DNA of 64,000 nucleotides, from the IMG/VR virus record IMGVR_UViG_3300047320_000132, positions 67,101 through 131,100 of that record. The stretch is one strand, 5' to 3'. The stretch's first letter is position 1, and every line of letters begins with the position of its first letter. Under the pieces are notes generated by a model, which ran no database searches, was not told the DNA's origin, and worked only from the letters and a program-made list of their open reading frames with translations. The translations under genes and the position numbers were made by a program. The DNA is from a virus (taxonomy: Duplodnaviria > Heunggongvirae > Uroviricota > Caudoviricetes). Below, in pieces: positions 5,341-63,579 of this stretch.

Positions 5341-5540
5341 CCGCTTGGAGCCTCTCTTGAAGGCAGGACTAGGTTTGGTATCGACCAGGCAAGCCAGCCC
5401 GTCAGAGAGGCTGTATTGAAGTCTAAGAGGTATTCCAGTCCGAAGTTTGTGGTAGTTTTTCAGACAGAACTAGAGTCCTGAGAAAAACTGGACAGACGAT
5501 TAAAAAATTTCTTATTTAAAATCAAAGACTTAAACTAGAG

Positions 5541-5940: not shown

Positions 5941-6179
5941 AGCTCTGAAAGCCAAGCTGGGTAAGGCTTTGCGGGTTTTTGGGTTTGTCCAGTTTTTTTA
6001 AAGTCATCATTCAGGTCCTCTTTTGGTATAAGTAAAGTATGGAGAGAACTGTTGATTTCGCCTTCAGCAGAGTTCCCCTTACCTTGAATTGGGCTTACGA
6101 TTTCGTAGGGCCTTGACAAGTTGGTCTTTTACCGGAAGCTGATCCCCAATCTTCATCCGGTTTTTTTTGGTCAATTGAA

Positions 6180-7019: not shown

Positions 7020-7101
7020 ATTAGTAGCAACAATTGCGGTATAAGCGTACTGCCGGGCAAATAGCTTGGTGGTACAATATTGTTTTTAGTGAGGTAACAC
7101 A

Positions 7102-31424: not shown

Positions 31425-31500
31425 GGGAATATAGCTCAGTTGGCAGAGCAGCGGATTCTAAATCTGAAGGTCTCGGGTTCGAGCCCCGATGTTCCTACCA
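31425..31500 (+). tRNA. tRNA with CUA anticodon (amber suppressor-type). Amino acid identity unresolved.
   Basis: A 76-nt canonical cloverleaf. Acceptor GGGAATA/TGTTCCT. D-arm GCTC-AGTTGGCA-GAGC. Anticodon stem GCGGA/TCTGA, loop TTCTAAA, so positions 34-36 are CTA. Short variable arm. T-arm TCGGG-TTCGAGC-CCCGA. A73. CCA encoded. Confidence 0.55.
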
Positions 31501-32798: not shown

Positions 32799-32868
32799 AA
32801 CAAAATAGCTCAATTGGTAGAGCGCACATACTCTTGTGAGGCTGGGGGCTCGTATCCCCCTTTTGTTA
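32799..32868 (+). ncRNA. tRNA-like element (pseudo-tRNA?) with canonical acceptor and D-arm but a defective anticodon arm
   Basis: Acceptor AACAAAA/TTTTGTT. D-arm TA-GCTC-AATTGGTA-GAGC. T-arm GGGGG-CTCGTAT-CCCCC. The anticodon region does not form a standard 5-bp, 7-nt stem-loop. Lies 28 nt downstream of a TTGGTATAAG promoter. Confidence 0.35.
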
Positions 32869-44873: not shown

Positions 44874-44985
44874 CAAGTTTCAGTGCGGGTTTGGTATAGA
44901 TGAATGTGCAGCGGTTTTCCAAACCGACGAGACGAGTTTGATACTCGTAGCCCGCTCAAAGTATCTAAGGTAGAAAGTTCTTAGA

Positions 44986-45775: not shown

Positions 45776-46000
45776 ATGAGCTGCAAACTGAAGAAAGAGA
45801 CATCGATCGACGCAAAGAACAACGCTGTTAGACTGTCACGTTCACTAAGAAACAGTAAGCCTAAAGACGGGACTGAAAAGAGTCAGTTCAAAGCGTATTA
45901 TTGTGAAGAGTGCGATGCCTGGCATGTAACGAGTAGTCCAGTAGCACAATCCAAACCCCGGCACAAGCATACCAGTGCCTTAATACCAGCCATAACATAA
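45776..46000 (+). CDS. hypothetical zinc-finger protein
   Basis: 74 aa. YYCEECDAWH. Confidence 0.4.
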   Translation: MSCKLKKETSIDAKNNAVRLSRSLRNSKPKDGTEKSQFKAYYCEECDAWHVTSSPVAQSKPRHKHTSALIPAIT

Positions 46001-47397
46001 TGACCAAGATAATCCTTCATACCTGCGATAATGCGGAAGACAACGCAATGCTCCAGGCGTTGTACTCCCGCAGCGCAGAGAGTGTCACGACCCACCTTGA
46101 GAAAATCAAGGAGACTGGGTCGGGGAAGTTTATGTCCCAATACTACCTGGGCTATGGCCACGCGTCCATTGGGGACTGCGGCGGCGATACCCTTTACTTT
46201 GAGGGGATCTCGATGCTGGCCGCAAAGGCAATCGAGGACAACCCTCTTTTCGTCGGACAGGAGTGCAGCTCTCGATACATCGATTTCAGTACCGCCGATT
46301 TCTATAATAACGGACGTACGTTAGCAGAACTCAAAGCCATTGAGGATCTGTATGCTCGTTACCGAGCATTCTATACGTCTTCAATGGAGCCTTTGAAGAT
46401 TGCCCTGCGTGAACGATTCCCCATCCAGGAAGGAGACAAAGAGGCCGTTTACGAGAAAGCTATTGCTGCTCGTGCTTTTGATATTCTCCGTGGCTTTCTG
46501 CCTACAGGTGCTACTACCAATGTGGCTTGGACATTCCGATTTAGCAACGCTGGTGAGCACCTCACCTGGATGATGCACCATCCGCTGAAAGAAGTAAAAG
46601 AGCTTGCGGTGGAAGCGTATCGGATGTTGTGGACTAAGTACCCCAACTCGTTCAGGTTCGATCACGCTGGGTTTATCGACAGCATTAACGTCGACGGTGC
46701 TTTGCCGGAAATCGAAGGGGCCGAGAAGTATGCCTTCGAAAGCGAAATGGACAACTTCTATACACAGATCTGGGTTCCTGAAAAAGGTCGTAAGCTTTGT
46801 CGTACCGAGGATCTTCTGATCGAAGTGGAACTGGATGACGAAACTCCCAGTCTGGCCAAGTTGTCGAGCGGTTTCGTGAATCGGACGAAACGTAGCAAGC
46901 TGCATAAGCATTCCCTGTTCAGTAAACAGGACGTCTACGTTTCGGCGACTCTGGACTTCGGATCGTTCCGGGATATTCAACGTCATCGTAATGGCTATTG
47001 TAGCATGCCTATGGTGACGGATGAATTCGGCGTGCATCCCTGGTACTACGACAACCTCACGGAAGATCTACGTAAGGAAGCGTATATCCTTCTGAATGCG
47101 ATCGAAGCAACTTACGCTCTGCTTGTCCCAGATGGTACTGACGTTAATGCCCGGGCTCAAGCTCAGTACATTCTTCCGATGGGTAACGTGGTACCGGTCG
47201 TGTTGAAGTATGACATCAGGCAGTCTGTATACGTGGCTGAGTTGCGTTCCAGCAAAACGGTACATGCTACGCTTCGCCCGGTTGCCCAAGAAATGGCGAG
47301 AGTGCTGGGAGACTTCGGTATCCCTATGTACTACGACAGGGATGAAGATAACTGGACTGTACGTCGCGGTGAGCAAGATATCATCAAGAAGAGTTAA
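46000..47397 (+). CDS. thyX: ThyX-like protein (FAD-dependent thymidylate synthase family) with an apparent internal domain duplication
   Basis: 465 aa. The C-terminal half carries FRDIQRHRNGYCS, the ThyX RHR motif. The N-terminal half has a ThyX-like EGIS...SSRYI block but no RHR. Confidence 0.5.
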   Translation: MTKIILHTCDNAEDNAMLQALYSRSAESVTTHLEKIKETGSGKFMSQYYLGYGHASIGDCGGDTLYFEGISMLAAKAIEDNPLFVGQECSSRYIDFSTADFYNNGRTLAELKAIEDLYARYRAFYTSSMEPLKIALRERFPIQEGDKEAVYEKAIAARAFDILRGFLPTGATTNVAWTFRFSNAGEHLTWMMHHPLKEVKELAVEAYRMLWTKYPNSFRFDHAGFIDSINVDGALPEIEGAEKYAFESEMDNFYTQIWVPEKGRKLCRTEDLLIEVELDDETPSLAKLSSGFVNRTKRSKLHKHSLFSKQDVYVSATLDFGSFRDIQRHRNGYCSMPMVTDEFGVHPWYYDNLTEDLRKEAYILLNAIEATYALLVPDGTDVNARAQAQYILPMGNVVPVVLKYDIRQSVYVAELRSSKTVHATLRPVAQEMARVLGDFGIPMYYDRDEDNWTVRRGEQDIIKKS

Positions 47398-47478
47398 ACA
47401 AATTTAGGTATTATGGTATAAGCAAAGTGTCGGGGAAATTACTTCCTTGGCACTTTCTTTTTAGTCTAGGAGACTTAA

Positions 47479-47958
47479 ATGTATCAAGCAGATAACGGTC
47501 GTTACACCCTCATCCAGATCGAAGCTTTGGCATTGGTCCTGGAACGTACAGAAGATGGCAAGCTGGTTCACCTCGGCGCTCCCGCCCATCTCTCGCTCGA
47601 AGAGAGTCTCAATGATATCCGTGCTGGTATCAATGAAACGCTTGTCGACGTTAAGAGAACCAAGGAGATGGTCCTCAAACAGTGGAACCGTTTCCAGGCA
47701 ACCAAACCGTTCATGGAAGCTCGTGAACTGGAACTTAACGAAGTGATGTGGAAAGGCTTCGAACTGCAAAAGTACGAATCCAAAAAGACCAGCGCAATTG
47801 CCGCTCTGGAACAGGCACTGTACGAACTTACGGACATCATGCTTGAAAACGACGTAACGTTGAAGAGTCTCGAGGATTCTACAGGGACTGCTGAAGTCAA
47901 ACACGTAAGTCTGGATGACGTCAAAAATCTGTTTGACGGATTCGGAAAGAAAGAGTAA
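47479..47958 (+). CDS. hypothetical protein
   Basis: 159 aa, helical and acidic. Confidence 0.45.
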   Translation: MYQADNGRYTLIQIEALALVLERTEDGKLVHLGAPAHLSLEESLNDIRAGINETLVDVKRTKEMVLKQWNRFQATKPFMEARELELNEVMWKGFELQKYESKKTSAIAALEQALYELTDIMLENDVTLKSLEDSTGTAEVKHVSLDDVKNLFDGFGKKE

Positions 47959-48015
47959 CATAGGTTTGTGCGGTAACAGAGAGTTGCCGCTTTTCTTTAA
48001 CTTCGAGAGGCTCGA

Positions 48016-49164
48016 ATGTCAATTATATCCCTTAAGCACGAAATCGTGCAGCAGTATGAAATCGTTTCTACGGAACGCAAACCCAAAGAGTTTGATCTTG
48101 CAGTAGTAATGGGTCGTTTTGAACCCTATCACGTTGGTCACCAGATTCTCGTCAACAAAGCACTTCTGATCGCAGATCGTGTTCTTGTATTGATCGGGTC
48201 TGCAAACGCCCCCCGCACTATCAAGAATCCCTTCACGTACGATGAACGTGCGACGATGATCGCTATGTCTCTTACGCAAGAAGAGATGGGTACCTTGCAC
48301 GACAGCAGATTCTTGACGGAAGCTCTTGTAGACAACATGTACTCTGACGATGACTGGGCAAAACAAGTCCAGGAAAAAATCTCCTACTGGACTCCGAAAT
48401 ATGATGCTTCAACTCCAGTTGAAAAACGTAAACCAATAAAGATCGCAATCGTCGGCAATAAAAAAGACGAGAGTTCGTATTATCTCGATCTATTTCCGCA
48501 ATACGACTACGTCCCGGTAGATGAAGTAAAACTTGGATTTGACGCTACGTCTATTCGTGAAATCATCTTCGAAAAGCCGGGGTTCATCGATCTGCTGAAA
48601 AGCCTAGTTCCTTCGTACACTTTCGACTTTCTGAAAGACTTTATCAAGTCTCCGGAATACTACCGTCTGTCTCGTGAATACCAGATGGTTAAGAAGTATA
48701 AGGAAGCCTGGTCAGTGGCCCCGTATGCACCTACGTTTGTTACCGTGGATGCAGTGGTGAAGAAAGCTGGACACGTTCTTTTAGTCAAGCGGAAGGCGGC
48801 TCCTGGAGAAGGACTCTGGGCATTGCCGGGTGGATTTGTAGAACAGAATGAGAGGCTCAGAGATGCGGCACTTCGTGAACTCAAAGAAGAAACAAGCATT
48901 GATCTGCCTTCTGGTCTTCTGCTTGGTAGTATGGGCGAAGGCGTTGTTTTTGACCATCCTAATCGCAGCTTGCGTGGGCGCACTTTTACCCATGCTTTCC
49001 TCTTTGATCTTGACCGGGCGGATAAGAAAGCTGGAATCCCCAAGACCAAAGCAGGAGACGACGCAGCAGATGCCAAGTTCTTCACGTACGACGAAACCCT
49101 GAAGATGGCAGATAAGGTCTACGAAGATCATCTTCCCATTATTCGCAAGCTGGTCGGTATCTGA
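48016..49164 (+). CDS. nadM: Bifunctional NMN adenylyltransferase / Nudix hydrolase (NadM-Nudix type)
   Basis: The N-terminal cytidylyltransferase motif MGRFEPYHVGHQ is an HxGH box. The C-terminal Nudix box is GGFVEQNERLRDAALRELKEETSI. Confidence 0.75.
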   Translation: MSIISLKHEIVQQYEIVSTERKPKEFDLAVVMGRFEPYHVGHQILVNKALLIADRVLVLIGSANAPRTIKNPFTYDERATMIAMSLTQEEMGTLHDSRFLTEALVDNMYSDDDWAKQVQEKISYWTPKYDASTPVEKRKPIKIAIVGNKKDESSYYLDLFPQYDYVPVDEVKLGFDATSIREIIFEKPGFIDLLKSLVPSYTFDFLKDFIKSPEYYRLSREYQMVKKYKEAWSVAPYAPTFVTVDAVVKKAGHVLLVKRKAAPGEGLWALPGGFVEQNERLRDAALRELKEETSIDLPSGLLLGSMGEGVVFDHPNRSLRGRTFTHAFLFDLDRADKKAGIPKTKAGDDAADAKFFTYDETLKMADKVYEDHLPIIRKLVGI

Positions 49165-49868
49165 TGAGCAACACCATTTCCGAAGAAGATTTGACCATAA
49201 AGAATCTAACCGCTAAGTACTACGTTTATTCTTTAAGGGCTGAAAATGAACACATGCCGTTTTATATCGGTATAACTGCTGTTAATCGTAGACGTTTTAA
49301 CGAACATATGTGCAGAGCTAATAAGGGAGACAGTAAACTTGTCTATACCAAAATTAGAAAATGTATAAATGAAAACGTTAGAATAATTCACGAAGTATTA
49401 TTAACTTCAGAGTCTCAGAGCGTAGCCCTTGAAATGGAAAAGTTTTTAATTCAGTCGTATGGTAGGCAGGATATTAAAACAGGTATCCTTAAAAATCATA
49501 CGGCTGGGGGAGACGGTGTACATGAGTATCGTCATACTGAAAAAGCCCGTGAGAAAATGAAACTGGCTAAGCTTGGCAATAAGTTAAACGTTGGGCGTAA
49601 ACGACCTGATGTTGTTGAAAAATGGAGTAAGCCTATTTCTATGTTTAATCACAAAGGCGAATTGGTTAACACATTTAATTCTGCAAGAGAAGCTTGGAAA
49701 GAGACGGGTATTCATTTTGGCGGTATTTCAGCCGTATTAAGTGGTAAGAATAAACGAGTCAAACAAAAACCAACAGGTGATTATTTTGTATTCAGATTTC
49801 GAGAAGAATCTTGTACAAGTATTGAGCCTTTTAAAAATCAAAAATCTGGTCGTAGCCCTAAGCAATAG
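49164..49868 (+). CDS. GIY-YIG homing endonuclease between nadM and nadV
   Basis: 234 aa. KYYVYSL...PFYIGIT is the GIY-YIG motif. C-terminal NUMOD-like repeats. Ends with TAG. Confidence 0.75.
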   Translation: MSNTISEEDLTIKNLTAKYYVYSLRAENEHMPFYIGITAVNRRRFNEHMCRANKGDSKLVYTKIRKCINENVRIIHEVLLTSESQSVALEMEKFLIQSYGRQDIKTGILKNHTAGGDGVHEYRHTEKAREKMKLAKLGNKLNVGRKRPDVVEKWSKPISMFNHKGELVNTFNSAREAWKETGIHFGGISAVLSGKNKRVKQKPTGDYFVFRFREESCTSIEPFKNQKSGRSPKQ

Positions 49869-49900
49869 ATGCTTAGTATTTTATTTAGTGAGGAACTAAA

Positions 49901-51298
49901 ATGTCAAACTTCAAAATTAATCCGTTACTTAACGTCGATAGTTATAAAAATTCTCATTTCTTGCAATACCCACAAGGCACTTCTGCCCTGTACTCATACG
50001 TGGAAGCACGCAAGGACAACAGCGGGTTTGGGATCAAGAACTCAACGTTCTTCGGTCTCCAGGGTTTCATCAAAGACCACTTGCTCAACGCAATCACGGC
50101 TGAGCATGTCGAGTACGCAATGAAGGTCAATTCTATTCACGGTGAGCCCTTCGCTAAGAAGGAATTTGATCGCCTGGTGAAAGTGCATGGAGGTCATGCT
50201 CCGATGGTGATCCGTGCAGTCCCGGAAGGTCTGCAAGTTCCGATGTCGAATGTGCTGGTCGATGTAATGTCTACTGACGAAGAAATGCCTTGGATCGGTT
50301 CGTTCTTCGAAACCCAGATCCTTCGTGCAGCGTGGTTTGGTACTACGGTAGCTTCCATTTCGAGGCACTGTAAAGAGATCATCTTCAAGTACCTTGTCGA
50401 TACGTGCGATAGGCCGCTCGACGAAATGCCCTTCAAGCTTCATGACTTCGGTGCCCGTGGCGCAAGCTCTACGGAGACTTCTGCAATTGCTGGCGCAGCG
50501 CATCTGATCAATTTTATGGGTACAGACACCATGCTTGGCATGGAGTATGCACATCAATTCTACGGAGCTGACTACAATGGCCTGGGTTATTCTATTCCCG
50601 CTGCTGAGCATTCCACTATTACTAGTTGGGGGCGTACGCACGAAGCTGACGCTTATAGAAATATGTGCGAAAAATTCGGCCAAGGCCTATTCGCTGTTGT
50701 CAGTGATAGCTACGATATCTTTAACGCTGTTAAAAATATCTGGGGCGGAGAGCTTCGTGACTTTGTCCTGGCCCAACCTGGTACTCTTGTGGTTCGTCCA
50801 GATTCTGGTGAACCTGTATCTGTCGTTTCTACGGTGGTCGGGCTACTGGCCGATGCGTTCGGTTACAGTGTTAACTCGAAAGGCTTTAAGGTCCTGAACA
50901 AGGTCCGTGTCATTCAAGGTGATGGTGTAAACCCTGAAAGCATCGAGAAAATTCTTGCTGCTCTTAAGTTGGCTGGATTCAGCGCCGAGAACGTTGCATT
51001 CGGCATGGGCGGGGCGTTGCATCAGAAGTTGGATCGTGATACGCTTTCGTTTGCAATGAAGGCTTCGTCTGTCTGTGTTGATGGCAAGTGGCTTGACGTA
51101 TACAAGAATCCTATTGCTGGCGGTAAAACCAGCAAGCGCGGACATCTTGCACTAGTCGAAGATAATGACGGAGTGTTGACCACGATTCGTCGTGAAAATG
51201 CTATGGGTCGTGTAGATCTGTTGGAACCTGTATATGCGAATGGTGTTTTGATTCGTGACCAGTCTTTTAGCGATATTCGTCGCAACGCAGCAATCTAA
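49901..51298 (+). CDS. nadV: Nicotinamide phosphoribosyltransferase
   Basis: 465 aa. The N-terminal NPLLNVDSYKNSHF matches the conserved NadV/Nampt start. Length and overall pattern fit Nampt. Confidence 0.8.
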   Translation: MSNFKINPLLNVDSYKNSHFLQYPQGTSALYSYVEARKDNSGFGIKNSTFFGLQGFIKDHLLNAITAEHVEYAMKVNSIHGEPFAKKEFDRLVKVHGGHAPMVIRAVPEGLQVPMSNVLVDVMSTDEEMPWIGSFFETQILRAAWFGTTVASISRHCKEIIFKYLVDTCDRPLDEMPFKLHDFGARGASSTETSAIAGAAHLINFMGTDTMLGMEYAHQFYGADYNGLGYSIPAAEHSTITSWGRTHEADAYRNMCEKFGQGLFAVVSDSYDIFNAVKNIWGGELRDFVLAQPGTLVVRPDSGEPVSVVSTVVGLLADAFGYSVNSKGFKVLNKVRVIQGDGVNPESIEKILAALKLAGFSAENVAFGMGGALHQKLDRDTLSFAMKASSVCVDGKWLDVYKNPIAGGKTSKRGHLALVEDNDGVLTTIRRENAMGRVDLLEPVYANGVLIRDQSFSDIRRNAAI

Positions 51299-51346
51299 CC
51301 TCAAAGGGGAAACACTATGAAGTAATTCTATTTATGGAGGTTTCTC

Positions 51347-51541
51347 ATGAGTTTCGATAACAAGTTTTATCCGAACCGCAAAGACAATCGTCGACCTTAC
51401 CCAGATTGGGTAGGTTCAAAAGGGTTTGACAGATCCTGCCGCAATCACGGCGGTTGTAATTACTGCGTTTCGAATAGACGAATCCACTGGTTACGTGAAT
51501 TAGCCAAAGCAGACGACAAACTCAAAGAGTTTGGAATCTAG
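51347..51541 (+). CDS. hypothetical protein
   Basis: 64 aa. Ends with TAG. Confidence 0.35.
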   Translation: MSFDNKFYPNRKDNRRPYPDWVGSKGFDRSCRNHGGCNYCVSNRRIHWLRELAKADDKLKEFGI

Positions 51542-51819
51542 TGTACACGGGGCTACGGCCCCGTTTCTTATTGGAGAAAAAGATGACTACTGCTTGTGAT
51601 GGTACGTTTCCGCGCTTGGAGAACTGGGAAGTTTATCCGTATTTTCCAGGCTCACAATCTGAAGTGTTAGTTGCAGAGGGTGACATCTACAACGACAAGC
51701 GTTGGCCGGATGGTACGCATATTTACACGTCCGCTGTGAAGAACCTGGCTGATGACGAAACCTCGCTTCAGACTCGTAATACCCTTTACCAACTTGGCAA
51801 GAAACTGGAGACGGCATAA
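51541..51819 (+). CDS. hypothetical protein
   Basis: 92 aa (alternative start at 51583). Confidence 0.35.
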   Translation: MYTGLRPRFLLEKKMTTACDGTFPRLENWEVYPYFPGSQSEVLVAEGDIYNDKRWPDGTHIYTSAVKNLADDETSLQTRNTLYQLGKKLETA

Positions 51820-52313
51820 TGAATCACGCTATGTGGGAACTATATTGGTTGACCCGCTTCATCAATATCCATGATGGTGCTGGTACCGTTTGGGGTGTCC
51901 TTATGGGTGCTTTAGGTATAGGTACTTTCCTCTCTATCGTCACTTGTATTGACGTGAGGGATGGTGAGAAAAGTGCGCATGTTTATAAATGGCTTAAACG
52001 TACGTACCTAACCTTCGGCATTCCTTGGTTGATTGCAAGTTTGCTTTACACCTTCACCCCAACCAAGGAAGAAGCTGCGTTTATCGTAGCCGGTGGAGCG
52101 GTGGTAGCCGCAGCACAGAGCGATGCCGGTCAACGGATTGCTTCAAAGTCTGTAGCCGTGCTTGAGGGTAGTCTCGACACCATTCTCGGTAAGGAAGCTG
52201 TAGCCAAGGCTCAGTTGGATGTTGAGAAACGCGTTGTGGATGCTGTGAAAAACCAGATGGGGATTAAAGGTGAAAGTCAAGGATCTGAAAAAGATGCTGG
52301 AAACGGTAAGTGA
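51819..52313 (+). CDS. hypothetical membrane protein
   Basis: 164 aa with two or three TM helices. Confidence 0.45.
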   Translation: MNHAMWELYWLTRFINIHDGAGTVWGVLMGALGIGTFLSIVTCIDVRDGEKSAHVYKWLKRTYLTFGIPWLIASLLYTFTPTKEEAAFIVAGGAVVAAAQSDAGQRIASKSVAVLEGSLDTILGKEAVAKAQLDVEKRVVDAVKNQMGIKGESQGSEKDAGNGK

Positions 52314-52451
52314 TGACGCCGAAATCGTGATAGGTGGCAGTGACCATCAGTACCTGATTGCAGAGATGGAGATTAGAAAAGCGGAAAAGACCAACTATGG
52401 TCTATTCGAACCTGATGCGCTTTGTACGAATACGGTGGACGTTTTTCTAGT

Positions 52452-52492
52452 GTGGTAATTAGAAGCCGGGTTTTACGACTCGGCTTTTTTTA
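52452..52492 (+). terminator. intrinsic terminator, same family as the one at 63836
   Basis: AGCCGGGTTTTACGACTCGGCT hairpin followed by TTTTTTTA. Confidence 0.55.
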
Positions 52493-52508
52493 CTTTTCTG
52501 AAGTATTT

Positions 52509-52518
52509 TTGGTATAAG
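52509..52518 (+). promoter_or_regulatory. TTGGTATAAG promoter motif
   Basis: TTTTTGGTATAAGAGTTTTGG, directly after a terminator. Confidence 0.45.
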
Positions 52519-52576
52519 AGTTTTGGAGTAGAGTAGTTTACTTTTTCTATACTAACGTCAAGGACTTATAAGAATC

Positions 52577-52939
52577 ATGTTGACCATCGCTTTGTGGGTA
52601 ATTCTCTGGGTAGCAGTTGGCGTTGTAATCGCCGCTTTGTTTTCTATCTCGAAGGAAAAGGACCGGGTCTTCGTGTGGAAAGACGAAGTAGCAACTGAAC
52701 TTTACGAACAGTTCAACGTTGATTATCGTATTGCATTTCAGATAGTCGACGGTACATTCTCCACATGGAGTTTGATGTACAAAACTGGTATGGCGGGTAT
52801 TCCGAGGGCCGTTGCTTTGCGTCTCTTCTGGCGTAAGGCAGACGAATCGGGTTGGATGCCGCATCATTTCAACAAACGGATTATGCCTGACGAACTGTAT
52901 CATCATCATTCGTGGGGCGGCATTATCGTCGAGGCTTGA
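52577..52939 (+). CDS. hypothetical membrane protein
   Basis: 120 aa. N-terminal TM helix. Preceded by a terminator and a TTGGTATAAG promoter. Confidence 0.45.
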   Translation: MLTIALWVILWVAVGVVIAALFSISKEKDRVFVWKDEVATELYEQFNVDYRIAFQIVDGTFSTWSLMYKTGMAGIPRAVALRLFWRKADESGWMPHHFNKRIMPDELYHHHSWGGIIVEA

Positions 52940-53140
52940 ATGTCTGAAGTAAATTGGGACAAAATCAATGTTGCAATAGATTTGAAAGTACGCCCAAAAA
53001 TTTCACCCTTACCGTGTCCTCTCTGTAAGTCAGATCAAGTGCAAGTCTGCATGGACACTAACAACCCTATTAAAGACTTTGTCAAATGCAGGCACTGTCA
53101 CTGTCAAGCCCCTTTCAAAGCTTGGCAGGATAGGAAGTAA
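52940..53140 (+). CDS. hypothetical zinc-ribbon protein
   Basis: 66 aa. CPLC...CRHCHC. Confidence 0.4.
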   Translation: MSEVNWDKINVAIDLKVRPKISPLPCPLCKSDQVQVCMDTNNPIKDFVKCRHCHCQAPFKAWQDRK

Positions 53141-53172
53141 AAAGAGAGAAGCTTCGGCTTCTCTTTTAGTTT
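53141..53172 (+). terminator. intrinsic terminator
   Basis: GAGAGAAGCTTCGGCTTCTCTC hairpin followed by TTTTAG. Confidence 0.55.
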
Positions 53173-53181
53173 GGAGAAAAT

Positions 53182-53445
53182 TTGAATAGCGATATGATCA
53201 ATGGCTTGCTGGAATTCGCAGGCTCTTTCTTTATCCTCGGGCACTGCAAGGCGATGTATAATGCCAAGGACTCTCGTGCAGTAAGCCTTCTTGCTACACT
53301 GTTTTTCTTTACCTGGGGACTCTGGAACGTTTACTTCTTTCCAAGTCATGGATTGTACTGGAGCTTCCGAGGTGGACTTTTTATGGCCGCTGCCAACATT
53401 CTGTGGGCCTGGCTGATTATTTACTATAGATGGATTAAGAAATGA
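53182..53445 (+). CDS. hypothetical membrane protein
   Basis: 87 aa. Confidence 0.4.
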   Translation: MNSDMINGLLEFAGSFFILGHCKAMYNAKDSRAVSLLATLFFFTWGLWNVYFFPSHGLYWSFRGGLFMAAANILWAWLIIYYRWIKK

Positions 53446-53627
53446 AACAAAAACTAAAAGCCTTCTTCAGCAATCGCTTTATCTTCCTGGCAACGATGCT
53501 TATTTTTGCGATGCTTGTCGGCTACGACCTTTCGACACATAACTGGACCTGGTTTATTATCGATTGTATTTTCCTTACATCCGATGCTTTCATTTTCGCT
53601 GACCACACCAAAAACTGGAATTCGTAA
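53442..53627 (+). CDS. hypothetical membrane protein
   Basis: 61 aa. Confidence 0.35.
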   Translation: MKQKLKAFFSNRFIFLATMLIFAMLVGYDLSTHNWTWFIIDCIFLTSDAFIFADHTKNWNS

Positions 53628-54250
53628 TGGCTGACGCTCTCATTGAAAAATTTGACCTACTCATCGACATGGATGGGGTTGTAGCAAAGTGGTATCCGGG
53701 TCTTCTGACATTATATCAGGCGCAGTATCCAGATCGTCCATATGTCAAACCTGAAGATGTGACCAAGTTCTACGTCGAAGAACTGTATCCGGAAGAACAC
53801 CGTGATGACGTTGTGGCAATTGCCCGTCAGAAAGGTTTCTACACGTTCCTGCCGGTGATGGAGGGGGCGAAAGAAGCCCTGAAAGACATTGAGGAAAACT
53901 GCCTGGACTTCATCAATCCTTTCTTCTGTACTTCGCCAGAAGTCGAGTACGAAGACTTGATGTGCCATTCAGAAAAGGTCCAGTGGACCAATCTTCACTT
54001 CGGACCTTTCTGGGTCAAGAACACGATCATCACGAAGGACAAGACGATGGTTATCGGCGACCTTCTGATCGATGATAAACCGGCGATCAAAGGTTCACGT
54101 AAACCGGTATGGGATCACCTGCATTACGCACAGCCCTATAACAAGGGTGGGCAATTAAAGAAGCAAAACCCGGAATTGGGTTTTACGTGGAATGAATGGC
54201 CTAAACTGCGTGAGGCTATCCGCGTAGTTGTTTATGGAGAACAGGAATGA
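53627..54250 (+). CDS. HAD-superfamily 5'(3')-deoxyribonucleotidase-like protein
   Basis: 207 aa. The N-terminal LLIDMDGVVAKW is a DxDG(V/T) HAD motif I in the context typical of NT5C-type nucleotidases. Confidence 0.5.
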   Translation: MADALIEKFDLLIDMDGVVAKWYPGLLTLYQAQYPDRPYVKPEDVTKFYVEELYPEEHRDDVVAIARQKGFYTFLPVMEGAKEALKDIEENCLDFINPFFCTSPEVEYEDLMCHSEKVQWTNLHFGPFWVKNTIITKDKTMVIGDLLIDDKPAIKGSRKPVWDHLHYAQPYNKGGQLKKQNPELGFTWNEWPKLREAIRVVVYGEQE

Positions 54251-54410
54251 GTTTCGCTAACCGCCTATTTGTAGTATTGGCTGTGATTAACATAATCCTG
54301 TTTGTTATTGCAGTTCACAGCGAATATACCGGACTTGCGATTGCAGAAGCTTTTACGAGTCTTCTTTGCACCCTTGGCGCTGTATCGAAGTTCAAGTAAC
54401 GAAAGCTGTT

Positions 54411-54420
54411 TTGGTATAAG
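54411..54420 (+). promoter_or_regulatory. TTGGTATAAG promoter motif
   Basis: TTTTGGTATAAGAGTATTGG. Confidence 0.45.
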
Positions 54421-54465
54421 AGTATTGGTAGTAACAATACTTTTATGCCTACACAAGGAGAGACC

Positions 54466-55227
54466 ATGAATGACACTGATTTGAAACGCAAGAAGTTCGC
54501 TGGGATCATTAAGATCGCAATCGGAGCTATAGCGATTGCATTCCTCGCACCTGCTATCATGCTTTTAGTCAAAGGACTAATTGGCATCGCTATTGCTGGA
54601 CTCGTGAGTCTGGCGATTGTTAACGGTGCGCCCGTCATTTCGATGAAACTTGCGAACTGGAAGGTCAAAGAGATCGTCCAGGAAGCCAAGACGAACCCCA
54701 TCGAGACGATGGTCAATGTTGCAAATGACCGGGCTGACCGATTGAAGGAAGCCCTTCAGCGAATCGGCGATCTCTCTGCGAGTGTCAAAAACTTCGCAGA
54801 CAAGGTCGTTGGCTTCAAGAAGCAATGGCCCAACGATGCAGCAATGTTCGACCAGGCCGTTACCAACGCTCAAAAAGTGTTGGCCAAGTGGACCAGTGAC
54901 TACAAAGTCGCCAAGGGGGCGTTGGAAGCTTATCTGTTGGAAATCGAGAAGTGTCGTGCTGTGAATGAGATGGCCGTGGAAATGGCAGCTCTTAACAAGA
55001 TGGCGCAGATGGACTCCGACAAGTTGATGGAAGAGTTGAAGTCGAAGACTGCCATCGATGAAGTAAGCCGTCGCATGAATAGTGCAATGGCTCAACTGGA
55101 AACGTCACTGCTGGAAGAAGTCAACTTCTCGGTTACGCCGGGAACGGCAATTTCCAATAACCCTACTCCGGTCGCAAACTTCGATACTGTCGACGCACAT
55201 AGTCCGGTCGTCGCAAAGGTAGGTTGA
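54466..55227 (+). CDS. membrane-anchored coiled-coil protein
   Basis: N-terminal pair of TM helices, then a long helical region. Confidence 0.45.
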   Translation: MNDTDLKRKKFAGIIKIAIGAIAIAFLAPAIMLLVKGLIGIAIAGLVSLAIVNGAPVISMKLANWKVKEIVQEAKTNPIETMVNVANDRADRLKEALQRIGDLSASVKNFADKVVGFKKQWPNDAAMFDQAVTNAQKVLAKWTSDYKVAKGALEAYLLEIEKCRAVNEMAVEMAALNKMAQMDSDKLMEELKSKTAIDEVSRRMNSAMAQLETSLLEEVNFSVTPGTAISNNPTPVANFDTVDAHSPVVAKVG

Positions 55228-55228
55228 C

Positions 55229-55423
55229 ATGCCTAAAGTAGTTGGCCAAGACACTTCCGTAGCTAAGCGCGTTACGTGCTCTCACTGCGGAGCCATCAAC
55301 GAGTATCTACCCGACGAAGTCCGGGAGCTGTATCGTGGAAAAGATATGAGTGGCTGTAGTGAAGGCTACGATGGGTTCAACTGCGGTCAGTGCGGTAAAG
55401 AAATCCATACCTGGAGTTTTTAA
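55229..55423 (+). CDS. zinc-ribbon protein
   Basis: 64 aa. CSHCGA...CGQCGK. Confidence 0.4.
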   Translation: MPKVVGQDTSVAKRVTCSHCGAINEYLPDEVRELYRGKDMSGCSEGYDGFNCGQCGKEIHTWSF

Positions 55424-55550
55424 TGTACACGAAACAACCTGACGGCACTGGTACTTGGGATATTCTGGATCCTGACGGTGATTACCTCGTTACGATTCAG
55501 GATGAAACCTCAGCGGATATTCTACTGTCTCATCTCAACCGAGGGTAAAC

Positions 55551-55736
55551 GTGCCTGTTATCGATGTTTACTGTAGTCATTGTGGTCAAAGATTGGAACA
55601 TCAGTCAGGGCGTATCTGGCATGGTGAACACGATATTGCTCCGCAGTACTGCTGGATTGATCCGATGCACGGCTCTCGGCTTCACGAGCCTGTAATTAAA
55701 CTTGAACTTTCTTCGGAGTACACTAACTGTGTATAG
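55551..55736 (+). CDS. zinc-ribbon protein
   Basis: 61 aa. CSHCGQ. Confidence 0.35.
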   Translation: MPVIDVYCSHCGQRLEHQSGRIWHGEHDIAPQYCWIDPMHGSRLHEPVIKLELSSEYTNCV

Positions 55737-56030
55737 ACTGATTGCCAGCCTCTTGGTGGTCCTGGTGTGCGTGAGTGGCTACTTCGCCTTTGACCACACC
55801 ACGTCGACCGCTTCTGTGGGCTCTGATGACTCCACAGGCGTATCCCAGCCCTCGGCTCCGGCTGCGGCCCCGTCCTCGGACGATAACAATCTCAAAGACC
55901 TGAAGGTGAACTAAGTGGACATTACAAATCTGCTGCTTGACGCAGCGGCAATTCTGCTTGCCGTAGTTTGTGTGTTCGGCTACACCGAAGTTTTCTGCAT
56001 CCTCTTTCTTTCCAATACCCAGGAGAAGTC

Positions 56031-56960
56031 ATGATTTGGTCCCGCGTTCCCCGTATCCCTTTGATCATTCTCACAACGTTGCTCACATTTCTCGTGTGTC
56101 ACGCTGCTCACGCTCAATCTCTCGCCGTAGCAACTGGCGGGCCTGCAGGTACGTATCACGCGATGTTCAGGGAGTTGAATGCGCGTTGCGGTGTCGATAC
56201 CGGAAGCGGTATTGACATCAAGGAAGTACCGTCGTCGGGGTCGAACGAAAACGTCGACAAGATGGTGGCCAATCAGGTCAATGGCGCATTCGTTCAGACC
56301 GACGTGCTGATCCTGCGTAGCAAGACCGAAGATCTCAGCAAGGTCAAGACTCTGTTCTCGCTTCACTCGGAACAGGTTCACCTGATCGCTCGGGCTGAAG
56401 GTGTGAAAGAAGGTGGGGTTATGGGCTTCGGTGCCAAGACCATTCACTTCAACACGATTTCGGACCTGAATGGTCGTAGCGTCGGCGCTGCCGGTGGTTC
56501 GGTTCTTACTGCGAAGGTGATCAAGGCTCAAAGCGGGGTGAATTACAATGTTGCCGAATTTCCCACGAACAAAGCTGCACTCGATGCTCTTCAAGCAGGA
56601 CAGGTCGACGGTGTTGTCATTGTCGGCGGAGAGCCGATGGCTGAAGTTGCAGCGTTGCCTGCCACGTACAGGCTCCTGCCTATTCAACCTGCAATCCAGG
56701 ACAAGCTGAAGGCGGTATATCAACCTGCGCGTCTGTCGTATCGTAACCTGAACGCAGCGGGTGTGCCGACGGTTTCGATCCGGTCGTTGTTCGTGACTCG
56801 TGAATACAAGTCTGCACGCTTCGTGTCGGCTTTGACTTCGCTGCGTGCATGCTTCAACAAGAACATCGACGACTTGCAAGAAACCACAAATACGAGTCCC
56901 GCCTGGCAATCGGTTGACGCCAAGGATCAGGGTAAGTGGGCGTGGTATGACCTGAAATGA
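56031..56960 (+). CDS. periplasmic solute-binding protein, TAXI-family-like
   Basis: Signal peptide MIWSRVPRIPLIILTTLLTFLVCHAAHA. LAVATGGPAGTYHAMFRELN resembles the TAXI TGGTGGTYY motif. GC-rich. No permease gene is adjacent. Confidence 0.45.
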   Translation: MIWSRVPRIPLIILTTLLTFLVCHAAHAQSLAVATGGPAGTYHAMFRELNARCGVDTGSGIDIKEVPSSGSNENVDKMVANQVNGAFVQTDVLILRSKTEDLSKVKTLFSLHSEQVHLIARAEGVKEGGVMGFGAKTIHFNTISDLNGRSVGAAGGSVLTAKVIKAQSGVNYNVAEFPTNKAALDALQAGQVDGVVIVGGEPMAEVAALPATYRLLPIQPAIQDKLKAVYQPARLSYRNLNAAGVPTVSIRSLFVTREYKSARFVSALTSLRACFNKNIDDLQETTNTSPAWQSVDAKDQGKWAWYDLK

Positions 56961-59486: not shown

Positions 59487-59651
59487 ATGATGAATGAAGT
59501 TATTAGCGTTGCAGAGTACGAAGAAGGTTTTGCCTTGATCGAAGATTCTCAAGGCAAGTACATGGTTACAAAGGACAGCCCTGAGATCACTGAAATACAG
59601 TTTCCTCGGTGTTACCTCACAGATCGTGATCGTCAAGCCCTTCTGACGTAA
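59487..59651 (+). CDS. hypothetical small protein
   Basis: About 54 aa from the internal Met. Confidence 0.3.
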   Translation: MMNEVISVAEYEEGFALIEDSQGKYMVTKDSPEITEIQFPRCYLTDRDRQALLT

Positions 59652-60296
59652 CACAAGAACAAGTTGCATGCGGAAGTAAGGTCCGTTCTCCTGCCCGGAA
59701 TGAGCAACCTGGGTTACCTTGCAGAATTGCTTCCATGACTTAGTATTTTGTAACGACAACGTTACTAGAAGTTTGTAACAGGCTTCAAAGTTGTCTTCCG
59801 CCCAGCTTGCAGCTGGAGCGGAGACCCGAGATGTCTTCGCCGAGAAGAAGAACATCTTGTCCTTGGCCGCCGGCGCCGAAGGTTCCGGAGACGGGTATAG
59901 TAATACACATGAGTTAGTCGTGGTATAATCGTAGTAGAAGTAAAGCAGGGCTCTCGTAGCTCTGCTAAAGCAGAAGTTTGAAGTATCAAACTGTCATTGT
60001 GGAAGGCCATCTATTGGTTGAAAGCAACGGGACAGAGAGTATCTGTAACAGTGCTCTACGCTTCTCGCTACACAACGCGAAAAGCAAAATCTCTACCCAG
60101 CTGGTTGCTGGGTAAAGGCAAATTCTGGGACGTCGTCGAAGCAGGTCTTCTACCCTGGTAAAGGTACCTTTATCAGGCTGGAGCACGAGGCTTCGTAGCA
60201 GAATGAGTTCAAACTAAAAGAGCCGACGAATTTGGGTTACCGCCAAAATTGACTCCAAGTTCATAAACTTGCTCTTTCAATAAATTTCGTTTTAGT

Positions 60297-60306
60297 GGTA
60301 TAATGT
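60297..60306 (+). promoter_or_regulatory. GTGGTATAAT promoter motif inside the noncoding repeat region
   Basis: A consensus extended -10 with no ORF downstream for about 780 nt. Confidence 0.4.
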
Positions 60307-60420
60307 TTATGTAGAGCCGCATTTAACTAGGTTATCTATTGCTCAGAAACCTCCTAGTTATATTCTTTGTTCTACTTCCGCTTTAATCCTGAAGCAGTCG
60401 TCAATGACTGTTTTGGTATT

Positions 60421-61050
60421 AAAGTTCATGGGCCGTAGAAATGGATTATCTAATCCCAAATCGCAAGTCACAGGTTCGAGTCCTGTAACCCGCTGCAGTT
60501 GCGGGTTTAATTCAGTTGGCAGAATGGCGATTCCTGATTCTATTTCGATCTCTTGCCTATCTCAGTTTCACGAGCCGAATGTTCAAGGTTATCTACTAAG
60601 CCAAAGTTAGAATAAAGCGTATTACGCAGTTTCCGGAAACGGGATAGTACCTAGGTCTAACACCGTTGTACTCTGCTTGAGCTAAAGCTATCGCGGGTGA
60701 ATCCTGCATCTCCTTGACAATCCTTGCTCGTATCAAGTTTCACGACGAACCGAAAGCGTAGGGTTATCTACAAACTTCAATTGGTGAAAACTGTTAGGTC
60801 GAAAGACCATCTCCCTTGCACCACTTGTTCGTCTTCCGTTTATGCTGAACCGCTAGTATTGTGTTATCTCCATTATCAGGACGTATTTCAGGTTCGAATC
60901 CTGACGGCACAATTAAGAGCATTCTGTGTTCTTGGTTGTGCTGTAGTTAAACTGGTATAACGCGTAAAACGCGCAGTACACTCTTTGTTCAGCTTCAAGT
61001 TTGTGAGCCGTTCAGATTTGGATTATCCTTTTAAGATTTCCTCCAGATCA
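60421..61050 (+). repeat. five copies of an approximately 40-nt element AGTTTCAYGRGCCG...GGTTATCTAC carrying DnaA-box-like TTATCYACA cores. Two copies are followed by tRNA T-arm mimics.
   Basis: Copies begin near 60421, 60556, 60731, 60827 and 60981. GGTTCGAGTCC and GGTTCGAATCC stem-loops follow copies 1 and 4. Confidence 0.5.
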
Positions 61051-61079
61051 ATTTCATTTGCTCACTTCAGTTTTATACA

Positions 61080-61526
61080 TTGCTAGTATTTAGCATGTCA
61101 ACTAATTCAAATTCTAAAAAATCACAACAGTTAGGTATGCCGTTTGGTACCGCCACAAATAAGCTCAGAAAAAAAGTAATGTTTTCTCTATTAGTCAGAC
61201 ACCGAGAAAATATATGTTTTAAATGCTCAAAAGATATTGAAACAGAAAATGAACTTAGCATTGAGCATAAAAAAGATTGGTTAGATGTAGGTTCTGAATT
61301 ATTCTGGGATATAGACAACATTGCATTTTCACATCTCAAATGTAATAAACCTAGAAAAGAATTCTACGAGAGTACTCGAAAAAATATAGTAGATGGTAAA
61401 CAAGAATGTTTCTCGTGTAAAACGTTTAAACCAATTTCTGAATTTTGGAAAAACAGAACCCGACATAGTGGGATAGACAGTCAATGTAAAGATTGTGTAA
61501 AAAGATACAGACGCAGTAAAAAATGA
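61080..61526 (+). CDS. HNH homing endonuclease
   Basis: 148 aa. SIEHKKDW...NIAFSHLKCN is an HNH motif. Cys pairs CFKC and CFSC...CKDC. Confidence 0.7.
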   Translation: MLVFSMSTNSNSKKSQQLGMPFGTATNKLRKKVMFSLLVRHRENICFKCSKDIETENELSIEHKKDWLDVGSELFWDIDNIAFSHLKCNKPRKEFYESTRKNIVDGKQECFSCKTFKPISEFWKNRTRHSGIDSQCKDCVKRYRRSKK

Positions 61527-61544
61527 CCTTTCGTATGTAACCAA

Positions 61545-61925
61545 GTAGTATGTTGGTAGTCAGGGAGCAACTTCCTGGTTAAATCTGCCACCGGTCCGTT
61601 CCGCTACGTTCGTTACGTGCTTCGCACTACACGACCTACGCTGCACTACCCGGAGGCGATGAGGAGATCTGCCCCAGAACGGGCAATGAGGTTAGGTCAT
61701 AACCCCGCAACACCAAGACTTACGTATTTTGTTTCAATGAAACGATGATAGAGTAACTCTGTCAGATATCGGTTCAGCTTCGCTGACTGGGATGTGCTCC
61801 AGGAGCACGAGCTGGGGGTACCCGTCGTACCCCGGGGAAGAGCTGCAGCATGGTTCTTCTTAACACCACATGAGGTAAGTCCAAAGGTCTGTTAGCTTCG
61901 GCTTTCAGACCTTCTTTTTTTAGTC
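61545..61925 (+). ncRNA. candidate structured noncoding RNA (Y RNA / YrlA-like?) immediately upstream of the Ro60 homolog
   Basis: About 380 nt with no ORF. GC-rich with many local helices, for example CAGGGAGCAACTTCCTGG and CCCCGGGG palindromes. Ends in an intrinsic terminator GGTCTGTTAGCTTCGGCTTTCAGACC plus a T-run at about 61885-61921, directly before the RBS of the Rsr gene. Confidence 0.4.
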
Positions 61926-61956: not shown

Positions 61957-63579
61957 ATGTCTTTCAATTCCCTCTCTAACAATACCAACACCCGCACTCA
62001 AGCAAAGACTACGGTTCAGACCAAACCGGCTGGTAATGCTTCTGTCGCTCAAGTAAAGAACAACGCTGGCGGCTTTGTGTTTGAGGTAACGCCTCTGCAG
62101 AAGCTCGATCGTTTCCTGATCATCGGTACGAGCGGTGGTACGTTCTATCAGTCCGAGAAAGATATCACCAAGGCCAAGGTCGACGATATCGTCAAGTTGA
62201 TCCAAACGAATGGTAAGGTTGTGGTCGACCGTATCGTTGAGATCAGCCAGGCTGGTCGTGCCAAGAACAATGACTACGCGTTGCTTGCTATGGCGTTGGT
62301 CTTCACTCACGGTGACGTGGCTACGAAACTGTATGCCAAGGACAAAGTGAACCTCGTGGCTCGTACTGGCACACACTTTCTGCACTTCGTGAACTTCGCT
62401 TCCGGCCTTCGCGGATGGGGCCGTAGTCTTAAGAACGTTGCTCAAAAATGGTACTCGGATAAAACGGTAACAAATCTTGCGTATCAAGTCGTTAAGTACA
62501 AACAAAGAGACGGATGGTCGCACCGCGATGTTCTTAGACTCAGCCACGTAAAGCCTGGCGAAGACGTGGTTCGTCAAAACCTTTACAAGTACATCGTGAA
62601 GGGTCCGGAAGCGCTTGCTATAGGTGACCAGGTTCCTGAGCTTCTGATTGCAGTAGAAGAGGCTAAGACCTGCAACAAGAACAAGCTTGTACAGCTTATC
62701 GGCGAACACAGGCTTACGCATGAAATGGTCCCGAACGAAATGAAGTCGCATCCTGAAGTCTGGGAAGCACTCGTTCCGCATATGGGCCTGAATGCATTGG
62801 TTCGTAACCTGAACAAGCTGACGGCTGTTGGACTGATCAAGCCTTTCTCGGAAACGAGTAAGCTGGTCACGACCAAGCTTCTGGATGTGGAACAGCTTCG
62901 TAAGGAACGTCTGCATCCGATGTCGATTATCGTTGCTAAGAAGATCTACTCTCAAGGCAAGGGCGATAAGGGTTCGCTGGTTTGGACCCCGGACAATACC
63001 GTCAAGGATACGCTTGAAGCGGCGTTCTACCTTTCGTTCGACGCGGTGGAACCGTCTGGTAAGAATATTGTTCTGGCGCTTGACGTGTCAGGTTCAATGG
63101 GTTCGGCTATTCCGGGTGTTCCGCAGTTGACGTGTTGTGAAGGTGCTGCACTGATGGCTATGGTTTCGGCTCGTACGGAACCTTGGACTGAAGTGTTGGG
63201 CTTCGCTAAGACGTTCAAGCCGCTGAACATCACGAAGCACGATACGCTTGAATCGGCTACCACCAAGGCGCATGACTGGAACTTCGGTTCTACGAACTGT
63301 GCTTTGCCTGCTGAACATGCGCTTGCACACCGTTGGAACGTAGATGCGTTCTGTATCTATACGGACAACGAGACGTATGCTGGTAAACAGCACCCGTTTC
63401 AAGCAATGCAGAAGTATCGTCAGGGCATGAACAAGCCTGATGCAAAGCTGATCGTAGTCGGTATGGCAGTCAATGACTTCAGCATCGCAGATCCCAAGGA
63501 TCCGAACATGCTTGATGTTGTGGGCTTCGATACGCAGACGCCGCGTTTCATGTCTGAATTTATAGCTGGACGTATCTAA
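61957..63579 (+). CDS. rsr: Ro60/TROVE-domain protein (Rsr ortholog) with C-terminal vWA domain
   Basis: 540 aa. LQKLDRFLIIGTSGGTFYQSEKDI...IVKLIQTNGKVVVDRIVEISQAGRAKNNDYALLAMALVF aligns to the human Ro60 N-terminus (LHRFLCFGSEGGTYY...IRLIEDGRG...VIQEIKSFSQEGR...EPMLFALA). The C-terminal vWA MIDAS is VLALDVSGSMGS. Confidence 0.8.
   Translation: MSFNSLSNNTNTRTQAKTTVQTKPAGNASVAQVKNNAGGFVFEVTPLQKLDRFLIIGTSGGTFYQSEKDITKAKVDDIVKLIQTNGKVVVDRIVEISQAGRAKNNDYALLAMALVFTHGDVATKLYAKDKVNLVARTGTHFLHFVNFASGLRGWGRSLKNVAQKWYSDKTVTNLAYQVVKYKQRDGWSHRDVLRLSHVKPGEDVVRQNLYKYIVKGPEALAIGDQVPELLIAVEEAKTCNKNKLVQLIGEHRLTHEMVPNEMKSHPEVWEALVPHMGLNALVRNLNKLTAVGLIKPFSETSKLVTTKLLDVEQLRKERLHPMSIIVAKKIYSQGKGDKGSLVWTPDNTVKDTLEAAFYLSFDAVEPSGKNIVLALDVSGSMGSAIPGVPQLTCCEGAALMAMVSARTEPWTEVLGFAKTFKPLNITKHDTLESATTKAHDWNFGSTNCALPAEHALAHRWNVDAFCIYTDNETYAGKQHPFQAMQKYRQGMNKPDAKLIVVGMAVNDFSIADPKDPNMLDVVGFDTQTPRFMSEFIAGRI

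Follow-up and report, generated by a model that had tools for sequence, protein, structure and literature searches.

Seven tandem Y-RNA-like units upstream of a Ro60 orthologue gene in the genome of an uncultivated, tRNA-rich phage

We analysed a 64,000-nucleotide (nt) stretch of a Caudoviricetes genome (IMG/VR record IMGVR_UViG_3300047320_000132, positions 67,101 to 131,100), hereafter the window, in which a long gene-free region precedes rsr, the gene of a Ro60 orthologue. All genes in this part of the window run rightward. A small open reading frame (ORF) ends at 59651, rsr occupies 61957-63579 on the plus strand, and the sole gene between them is an HNH endonuclease ORF at 61095-61526. The rsr product is a bona fide Ro60 orthologue with TROVE (Pfam, 6e-36) and Ro60-type vWA (Pfam vWA_Ro60, 8e-58) domains. 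Its closest solved structure is Rsr of Deinococcus radiodurans (PDB 2NVO, 1.5e-110), followed by RO60 (9NEN, 5e-102) and the 60-kDa SS-A/Ro protein (1YVP, 9e-100), the latter assigned to Xenopus laevis from the literature. A first-pass annotation had drawn attention to repeats within the gene-free region. These repeats belong to seven tandem RNA units that resemble Y RNAs.

The region holds no plausible ORF, as the first-pass annotation had stated: there are 19-28 stop codons in each of the six frames of 59652-61094, and gene callers predict essentially nothing in the equivalent block of ten related contigs. Five copies of an element of about 40 nt had been reported. The five quoted cores are all present (60441, 60587, 60761, 60861 and 61020), but the number of copies is seven, with two more at 60330 (AGGTTATCTATT) and 60234 (GGGTTACCGCC), recognised by core alignment, by eye and then by script. 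The length of the element also has to be revised. What had been seen is the 5' strand of a stem-loop unit of 61-162 nt, the 3' half of which lies 40-150 nt downstream of the core, and the "GGTTATC" cores are the UUAUC motif of Y RNAs.

The seven units, z and a to f, tile 60209-61072 head to tail, all on the plus strand. They are spaced by 0-4 nt, except between z and a (19 nt, holding a promoter) and between a and b (37 nt, holding a long hairpin). When folded, the 5' and 3' ends of each unit pair into one common module, which consists of a lower helix of 6-7 bp with an invariant C:G end, a bulged C, a G.U pair and an upper helix of 8-9 bp. From its 5' end, a unit comprises a short AGUUU-type spacer, a lower-stem strand of 6-7 nt ending in C, an unpaired C, a G, 1-4 nt, an upper-stem strand of 8-9 nt ending in GG or GR, the sequence UUAUC and a variable head of 12-118 nt. 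The head is followed by the upper-stem return (often after CU), a pyrimidine-rich loop of 6-10 nt ending in UU, and the lower-stem return, which begins with G. UUAUC opens the loop in all units except z, where it is UUACC.

The heads are of at least three kinds. Four units have minimal heads, and all four score well with R1, a covariance model that we built from a structure-blind MAFFT alignment of 15 short units from the window phage and its relatives. Unit z (60209-60283, core 60217-60277, 61 nt; 67.5 bits) folds with the lower stem AAAGAGC/GCUCUUU, a bulged C at 60224, an upper stem of 60228-60236 with 60254-60262, and UUACC at 60237-60241. Unit a (60303-60381, core 60311-60375, 65 nt; 58.7 bits) has the lower stem GUAGAGC/GUUCUAC, an upper stem of 60324-60331 with 60353-60360, and UUAUC at 60332-60336. 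The corresponding parts of unit f (60994-61072, core 61003-61065, 63 nt; 64.6 bits) are GUGAGC/GCUCAC, 61015-61022 with 61042-61049, and 61023-61027. Unit d (60736-60839, core 60744-60833, 90 nt; 47.1 bits) is likewise minimal, with a small GGUCGAAAGACC hairpin in its head. Unit c (60569-60735, core 60570-60731, 162 nt; 17.8 bits, E 1e-3) carries a 118-nt multi-hairpin head that is common to its orthologues in the related contigs L001, L004 and L006.

Units b and e have tRNA-like heads of the type found in bacterial YrlA RNAs. In unit b (60419-60567, core 60428-60560, 133 nt; 24.2 bits, E 2e-5), the head at 60462-60530 is made up of a T arm (60470-60486), a 7-bp "acceptor" hairpin (60487-60507) and a D arm (60510-60526). 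In unit e (60844-60993, 150 nt; 13.5 bits, E 0.018), the head at 60886-60961 contains a T arm (60888-60904), a hairpin of ~18 bp and a D arm with TGGTATAAC at 60951. Both T-arm mimics of the first-pass annotation (60471-60485 and 60888-60904) and its 7-bp hairpin (60487-60507) thus have a place in these heads. The Rfam YrlA model matches unit b with 28.1 bits (E 0.003, model positions 23-86) and unit e with 23.3 bits (model positions 29-81), and both matches cover just the tRNA-like domain, from the T arm through the acceptor-like stem to the D arm. The YrlA scores of the relatives are 28-45 bits. When orthologues of the b and e types were aligned and folded together, the arms were kept and the variable stems showed compensatory changes. 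In Mycobacterium smegmatis YrlA, a 7-bp "acceptor stem" makes the RNA a substrate of RNase P (PMC4201824).

The module is supported by covariation. Of the pair cells in the 15-unit alignment, 86% are paired. Sliding the 3' partner by 1-3 columns lowers this share to 41-51%, and the covariation score from 0.46 to 0.12-0.16. In a larger set of 88 units, taken from 24 loci, the share of paired cells is 91.5% (38-47% when slid), 15 of 17 pairs have double, compensatory changes, and the covariation score reaches 0.69 versus about 0.1. The C:G end, the bulged C and the G.U pair are invariant in all 88 units, as are CCG and the two U residues and the C of UUAYC; the 3' UUG is present in 84-88 of the 88. 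With default filters, R1 matched only the four training units in the 64-kb window. With filters off, over 2.6 kb, the untrained units b, c and e were matched too (E = 2e-5, 1e-3 and 2e-2), and the 64-kb window yielded no other credible match.

Rsr homologues of graded identity from a protein database, followed by contig look-ups, provided ten related contigs (53-96% Rsr identity), whereas a scan of IMG/VR with the single Rsr protein gave no matches. The ten contigs share the order of an HTH (helix-turn-helix) gene, a small ORF, a gene-free block of 1.7-3.4 kb and rsr, and each block has 3-8 R1 matches, all on the rsr strand. Given that gaps of ~150 nt between R1 matches hold further YrlA-like units, the real counts are about 8-10. 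The block is kept in these related phages, and its helices covary. Searching IMG/VR by pattern scan and then with R1 uncovered units in 36 viral loci. In at least 21 of them the units are followed, on the same strand, by a divergent rsr (35-48% identity). For instance, locus L087, from an unrelated phage lineage (43% Rsr identity), has eight contiguous units that end 80 nt before rsr, and three more further upstream. Bacterial loci were chosen by protein similarity only, not by sequence pattern. R1 units, 1-5 per locus, were found in 44 of these 80 rsr loci; all 75 matches are on the rsr strand, and 66 of them fit CCG-N9-13-UUAUC, UUACC or UUCUC. The cultured Ro-encoding actinophages ET08, Cashline and Blueeyedbeauty have no array (best R1 match 18 bits). 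Since the units recur beside rsr in divergent viral and bacterial loci, the module is a general rsr-linked RNA, and it is the large tandem array that is special to the window lineage and some other uncultivated phage lineages.

Two further settings came to light in these searches. In contigs of Verrucomicrobia metagenome-assembled genomes (L139, L144, L152, L169 and L173, about 1-9600), rsr lies amid ~6-20 tRNA genes per 9.6 kb together with R1-type Y RNAs; these contigs may be prophages or mis-binned phages, or may reflect a conserved association of tRNA arrays with Ro60. In two IMG/VR jumbo-phage contigs, L020 (277 kb) and L080 (465 kb), R1-type units are scattered along several kb of one strand at intervals of 1-2 kb, and the fetched flanks contain no rsr.

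The kind of RNA is already known, because Y RNAs have been documented beside rsr in more than 250 bacteria and 22 phages (PMC4201824), and the Ro60 of Thermus phage phiLo binds two upstream Yrl RNAs and complexes with the host PNPase (PMC12135203). What is new is the size of the array, its polycistronic layout, and a metazoan-like module that keeps both strands, the bulged C and a loop opening with UUAUC. This sequence has been described as conserved in nematode stem-bulge RNAs (sbRNAs) and vertebrate Y RNAs (PMC4450293, PMC4726728), and it is absent from the Rfam YrlA consensus. The CCG-N9-GGUUAUC spacing is the same in the window units, in human Y4 (GGCUGGUCCGAUGGUAGUGGGUUAUCAG) and in the consensus of Rfam RF01656. 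Moreover, seven prokaryotic R1 units beside rsr pass the RF01656 gathering score end to end, with 39-43 bits against a threshold of 38 (L180 5644-5709, L173 3836-3909, L148 1429-1496, L162 3628-3697, L152 3842-3910, L139 3842-3911 and L163 1094-1163).

Taken together, we consider it very probable that the seven units at 60209-61072 are Y-RNA genes in a polycistronic array and that they serve the Ro60 orthologue encoded by the phage itself. The array is conserved, runs in the same direction as rsr, and is found linked with that gene in many phage and bacterial lineages. The first-pass annotation had listed a small-RNA array, possibly of Y-RNA-like species bound by Rsr, among its candidates, and for this reading, in which binding is a prediction, structure, covariation, strand, synteny with rsr and the partial YrlA matches provide strong support.

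Several observations weigh on the other side. Units b and e fall well short of the gathering threshold of YrlA (RF02553, 69 bits). Unit d aligns with RF01656 end to end, on both strands of the stem, but weakly (19.2 bits, E 1.3), and this is the best score of any window unit against that family, well below its gathering score of 38. The Rfam Y_RNA model (RF00019) has no match at E<=10, either in the region or in units z and a alone. The published 5'-strand motif GNCGAAN0-1G (Chen et al. 2014) is fully fitted only by unit c (GCCGAAUG). Unit d has ACCGAAAG, the other units have CCGC, CCGU or CCGAC, and an A follows CCG in about half of the 88 units. R1 was trained on the window lineage, and the 88-unit alignment, A2, was fitted to R1 itself. 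The IMG/VR loci were picked with a pattern containing GAGCCG...TGGGTTATC, which makes part of the invariance circular. A strong terminator between the array and rsr and an unconserved promoter match at 59921 leave the layout of transcription units uncertain. Finally, the transcription of the units, the sites of their processing, their binding to Rsr and their role as adaptors are all predicted from sequence. A scan of the window at Rfam gathering thresholds returned only tRNAs elsewhere. Given that no Rfam threshold is passed and that the Y_RNA search is empty, the units are Y-RNA-like by architecture and context, and are not members of RF02553, RF00019 or RF01656.

The signals around the units bear on how they might be expressed. 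Our promoter and terminator scanner requires a -35 hexamer and a perfect stem, for which reason it missed the extended -10 sites and the terminator near rsr, and signals were judged by conservation instead. Three consensus extended -10 promoters had been proposed. Two are exact TGnTATAAT matches (TGGTATAAT at 59921-59929 and at 60296-60304, plus strand), but the third, at 60951, reads TGGTATAAC and is the D-loop of unit e. Only the one at 60296 is conserved and plausibly real. It belongs to an arrangement, TTTCAATAA-N9-10-TAGTGGTATAAT-N6-8-lower stem, that recurs in the window and in the related contigs L001, L003, L004, L006 and L008, and its predicted start at about 60310-60311 is the first base of unit a, a spacing fixed in these six genomes. 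The match at 59921 is unconserved even in L001, the relative with 96% Rsr identity. TATAAT is missing there in all aligned relatives, and the site overlies a conserved hairpin, CAUGA-GUYCG-UCAUG.

The junctions between units commonly contain (C)AGUUU(C), with the consensus YUCARGUUU. RNase E prefers to cut at RN|WUU, and RNase III needs a helix of ~20 bp. A hairpin of 19-22 bp lies in the spacer between units a and b (60380-60424, plus strand), with a conserved base GCUUUAAUCCUGAAG...UUUGGWAUUAAAG and a covarying top. It was found in six of the seven loci folded (the same six genomes), the spacer of L009 being different, and it is possibly a processing site of the RNase III type. Downstream of the HNH gene, a hairpin followed by U7 (61884-61921, plus strand; -16.8 kcal/mol), conserved and covarying, forms an intrinsic terminator 36 nt upstream of the rsr ATG. 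No obvious or dedicated promoter was seen between this terminator and the rsr ribosome-binding site (RBS), and we therefore suspect that rsr is expressed via read-through or antitermination.

In this scenario, units a-f would be transcribed from the extended -10 promoter at 60296-60304, and unit z and the leader that precedes it from further upstream. Transcription would mostly stop at the terminator, with read-through yielding rsr mRNA. The resulting one or two precursors may be cut by host RNases at the short, conserved single-stranded junctions, which fit the RNase E preference, and, by an RNase III-like activity, at the long spacer hairpin, with exonucleolytic trimming halting at the stems. 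The common module would then hold each mature RNA on Rsr, in the manner of the Ro60/Y3 complex of Xenopus and the Rsr/Yrn1 complex of Deinococcus. The different heads could serve as interchangeable adaptors or gates through which a single Rsr ring is linked to various host partners, for example to PNPase in a complex like RYPER or to tRNA-recognising factors, so that decay or repair of host structured RNA is redirected during infection.

The sole rival with some weight, which we nevertheless consider unlikely, is that the units are never released but stay part of the rsr mRNA as a long, structured leader that works in cis, and that Rsr binds this leader to autoregulate terminator read-through or to regulate translation. 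The units do lie on the rsr strand immediately upstream, the conserved terminator is placed just before the start codon with no dedicated rsr promoter seen after it, and unit processing is itself predicted. Yet the 432-nt HNH gene has been inserted between array and rsr with the array retained, and bacterial R1 units are also found downstream of rsr (e.g., L180 5639-6425). Units b and e, in addition, carry the heads of trans-acting YrlA RNAs, and the conserved junctions, together with a promoter placed exactly at a unit boundary, suggest discrete products.

A replication origin or DnaA-titrating locus, another of the candidates first proposed, is highly improbable. Seven TTATC-containing cores do occur in 860 bp, and TTATCTACA at 60764 is one mismatch from the DnaA box TTATCCACA. 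The five quoted cores had been placed within one or two mismatches of that box, but the measured distances are 3, 2, 1, 2 and 3. The window contains 16 boxes with at most one mismatch, where chance predicts 13.6, and a single one of them falls inside the region. The cores share one strand, each follows a covarying RNA helix at a fixed position, and it is UUAUC rather than the 9-mer that is conserved. GC skew does not invert, no AT-rich unwinding element is present, and the motif accompanies rsr from phylum to phylum.

The perfect T arms and D-arm-like elements of units b and e, in a phage with at least 22 tRNA genes elsewhere, could also be taken for pseudo-tRNAs left from phage tRNA islands. 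A decayed tRNA cluster of this kind is scarcely credible. ARAGORN and the Rfam tRNA model (RF00005) are empty at 59-62 kb, with no call from 45 kb to the end of the window. The arms occur in the order T, stem, D, permuted as in YrlA; five of the seven units have no tRNA-like part; and the elements are conserved with compensatory changes, not decaying. Least plausible of all is a frameshifted or unusual protein-coding gene, which had been named as a way to overturn the RNA reading and which could appeal to nothing beyond short chance ORFs of <=81 amino acids (aa), given the stop codons in every frame, the lack of called genes in the ten related contigs, and substitutions that are compensatory in helices and not codon-periodic. 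We also rejected type III toxin-antitoxin RNA repeats and CRISPR, the unit lengths being variable (61-162 nt) and the cognate genes absent.

Other parts of the gene-free block are structured too. Upstream of the array, 59652-60208 (~560 nt, plus strand) is a structured non-coding leader that is not Y-like and that is conserved in L001, L003, L004, L006 and L008 (MAFFT and RNAalifold). Several of its hairpins, among them CGGA-AGUAAGG-UCCG, CCCGG-N10-CCUGGG, GUAACG-ACAA-CGUUAC and UACCCAGC-UGGU-GCUGGGUA, show compensatory changes, and it has no Rfam match at E<=10 and no significant R1 match. The GGUCCG at 59681, considered as a metazoan Ro motif, is the covarying stem of a small hairpin. Between the HNH gene and rsr, alignment and consensus folding revealed two tandem, lineage-specific "X" repeat RNAs (61527-61885, plus strand), with closing stems GACUUAC/GUAAGUC and CCUUUC.../...GAAAGG-like, a conserved GUAU...AUGAG, and a covarying hairpin CAKRGAG-YAA-CUCYMUG (e.g., CAUAGAG-YAA-CUCUAUG). 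This hairpin motif was not found outside the window phage lineage, and Rfam gave the X RNAs no credible match, only a single chance-level one to sR44 (E 4.5).

The HNH ORF (143 aa, 432 nt, plus strand; Pfam HNH) has a GC content of 31%, against 46% for the window. By synteny and alignment it is restricted to the window phage and the relatives L001 and L002, and in L003, L004, L006 and L008 its site is filled by two to four additional Y-like units. It looks like a homing-endonuclease insertion that has taken the place of some of the units.

The window comes from a large phage-like genome rich in tRNA genes, of which at least 22 lie at 24-45 kb (ARAGORN, Rfam). Given that blastn of the region found no DNA-level match among 50,697 GenBank phages, and that the best tblastn match of Rsr to GenBank phages was 43% identical, in actinophages, the lineage is uncultivated. 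Among the tRNA genes is one with a CUA anticodon (31425-31500; labelled tRNA-Pyl by ARAGORN), of the amber-suppressor type, and stop codons could be reassigned or suppressed in this phage. Two Rfam tRNA matches, at 32799-32868 and 44885-44956 (49.5 and 37.9 bits), are absent from the ARAGORN calls. Genes for nucleotide and NAD salvage (ThyX, an NMNAT-Nudix fusion, NAMPT, NT5C) are abundant at 46000-56960, a GIY-YIG homing endonuclease lies at 49164-49868, and the scanned portion of the window showed neither an RNA ligase nor an RtcB gene.

From the perspective of Ro60 biology, Y RNAs are thought to be modular adaptors, and the range of adaptor functions has been hard to see because known bacteria and phages carry one to a few of them. 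With 7-11 units, one module and many heads, a conserved phage locus of this kind offers a ready-made library in which to study which partners the heads recruit and what use Ro60 is to a virus. According to the literature, conservation in bacterial YrlA RNAs is limited to the 5' strand (bioRxiv 10.1101/312249; PMC4201824), and in the published view bacterial Y RNAs are "not homologous". The near-invariant UUAUC and the two-stranded bulged helix tie prokaryotic Y RNAs to those of humans and nematodes more directly than this view allows. It is interesting to consider, as a possibility that we hold to be rather doubtful, both that such arrays are polycistronic "adaptor libraries", in which 7-11 co-expressed Y RNAs with one binding module but different heads re-target a single Ro60 ring to many host partners, and that the Y RNAs of metazoans share true homology with those of prokaryotes or phages, with UUAUC an ancient Ro60-linked determinant and not a eukaryote-specific DNA-replication motif. 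The suggestion of homology stems from the spacing of CCG, UU-G and UUAUC, equal to that of human Y4 and sbRNAs, and from the prokaryotic relatives that pass RF01656. The role of UUAUC becomes testable with bacterial or phage Ro60, and R1 recovers Y RNAs that Rfam YrlA misses.

Among described systems, the bacterial YrlA and YrlB RNAs (PMC4201824) are comparable in that the window units lie beside rsr on the same strand and have a 5'/3' stem with a CG(AA) motif. Units b and e share with YrlA the permuted T arm, acceptor-like stem and D arm, unit b resembles M. smegmatis YrlA in its 7-bp "acceptor" hairpin, and the minimal units, like YrlB, have no full tRNA-like head. They differ from YrlA in scores of 28 and 23 bits against a threshold of 69, in the presence of UUAUC, and in arrays of seven to eleven tandem units rather than one or two. 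Yrl1 and Yrl2 of phiLo, with phiRo60, are likewise Y-like RNAs directly upstream of a phage Ro60 gene, and experiments on that phage demonstrated binding and a ternary complex with host PNPase (PMC12135203). However, there are two RNAs and no array in that phage, and phiRo60 is very distant from the window Rsr (E 8e-9, versus 1e-110 to Deinococcus Rsr).

Yrn1 and Yrn2 of D. radiodurans, which act with Rsr (RYPER), are similar by description: a "metazoan-like" Y RNA with both strands of the Ro-binding helix, in an organism whose Rsr is, of all solved structures, the nearest to that of the phage. Unlike the units described here, the Yrn genes are dispersed singly, with no tandem array. With metazoan Y RNAs and nematode sbRNAs, the window units have in common the lower helix, the bulged C, ~3 nt, an upper helix of 8-9 bp, a loop that opens with UUAUC, and a 3' ...CUU-G.... 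Their lower stem is GAGC/GCUC instead of GGUC/GACC, and they have neither an RNA polymerase III context nor a 3' oligo-U tail. In layout, the array is most reminiscent of the polycistronic tRNA operons of phages, in which small structured RNAs follow one another head to tail with spacers of a few nt and are presumably freed by host RNases. The products in the window are not tRNAs, and what they share is a putative Ro60-binding stem rather than a cloverleaf.

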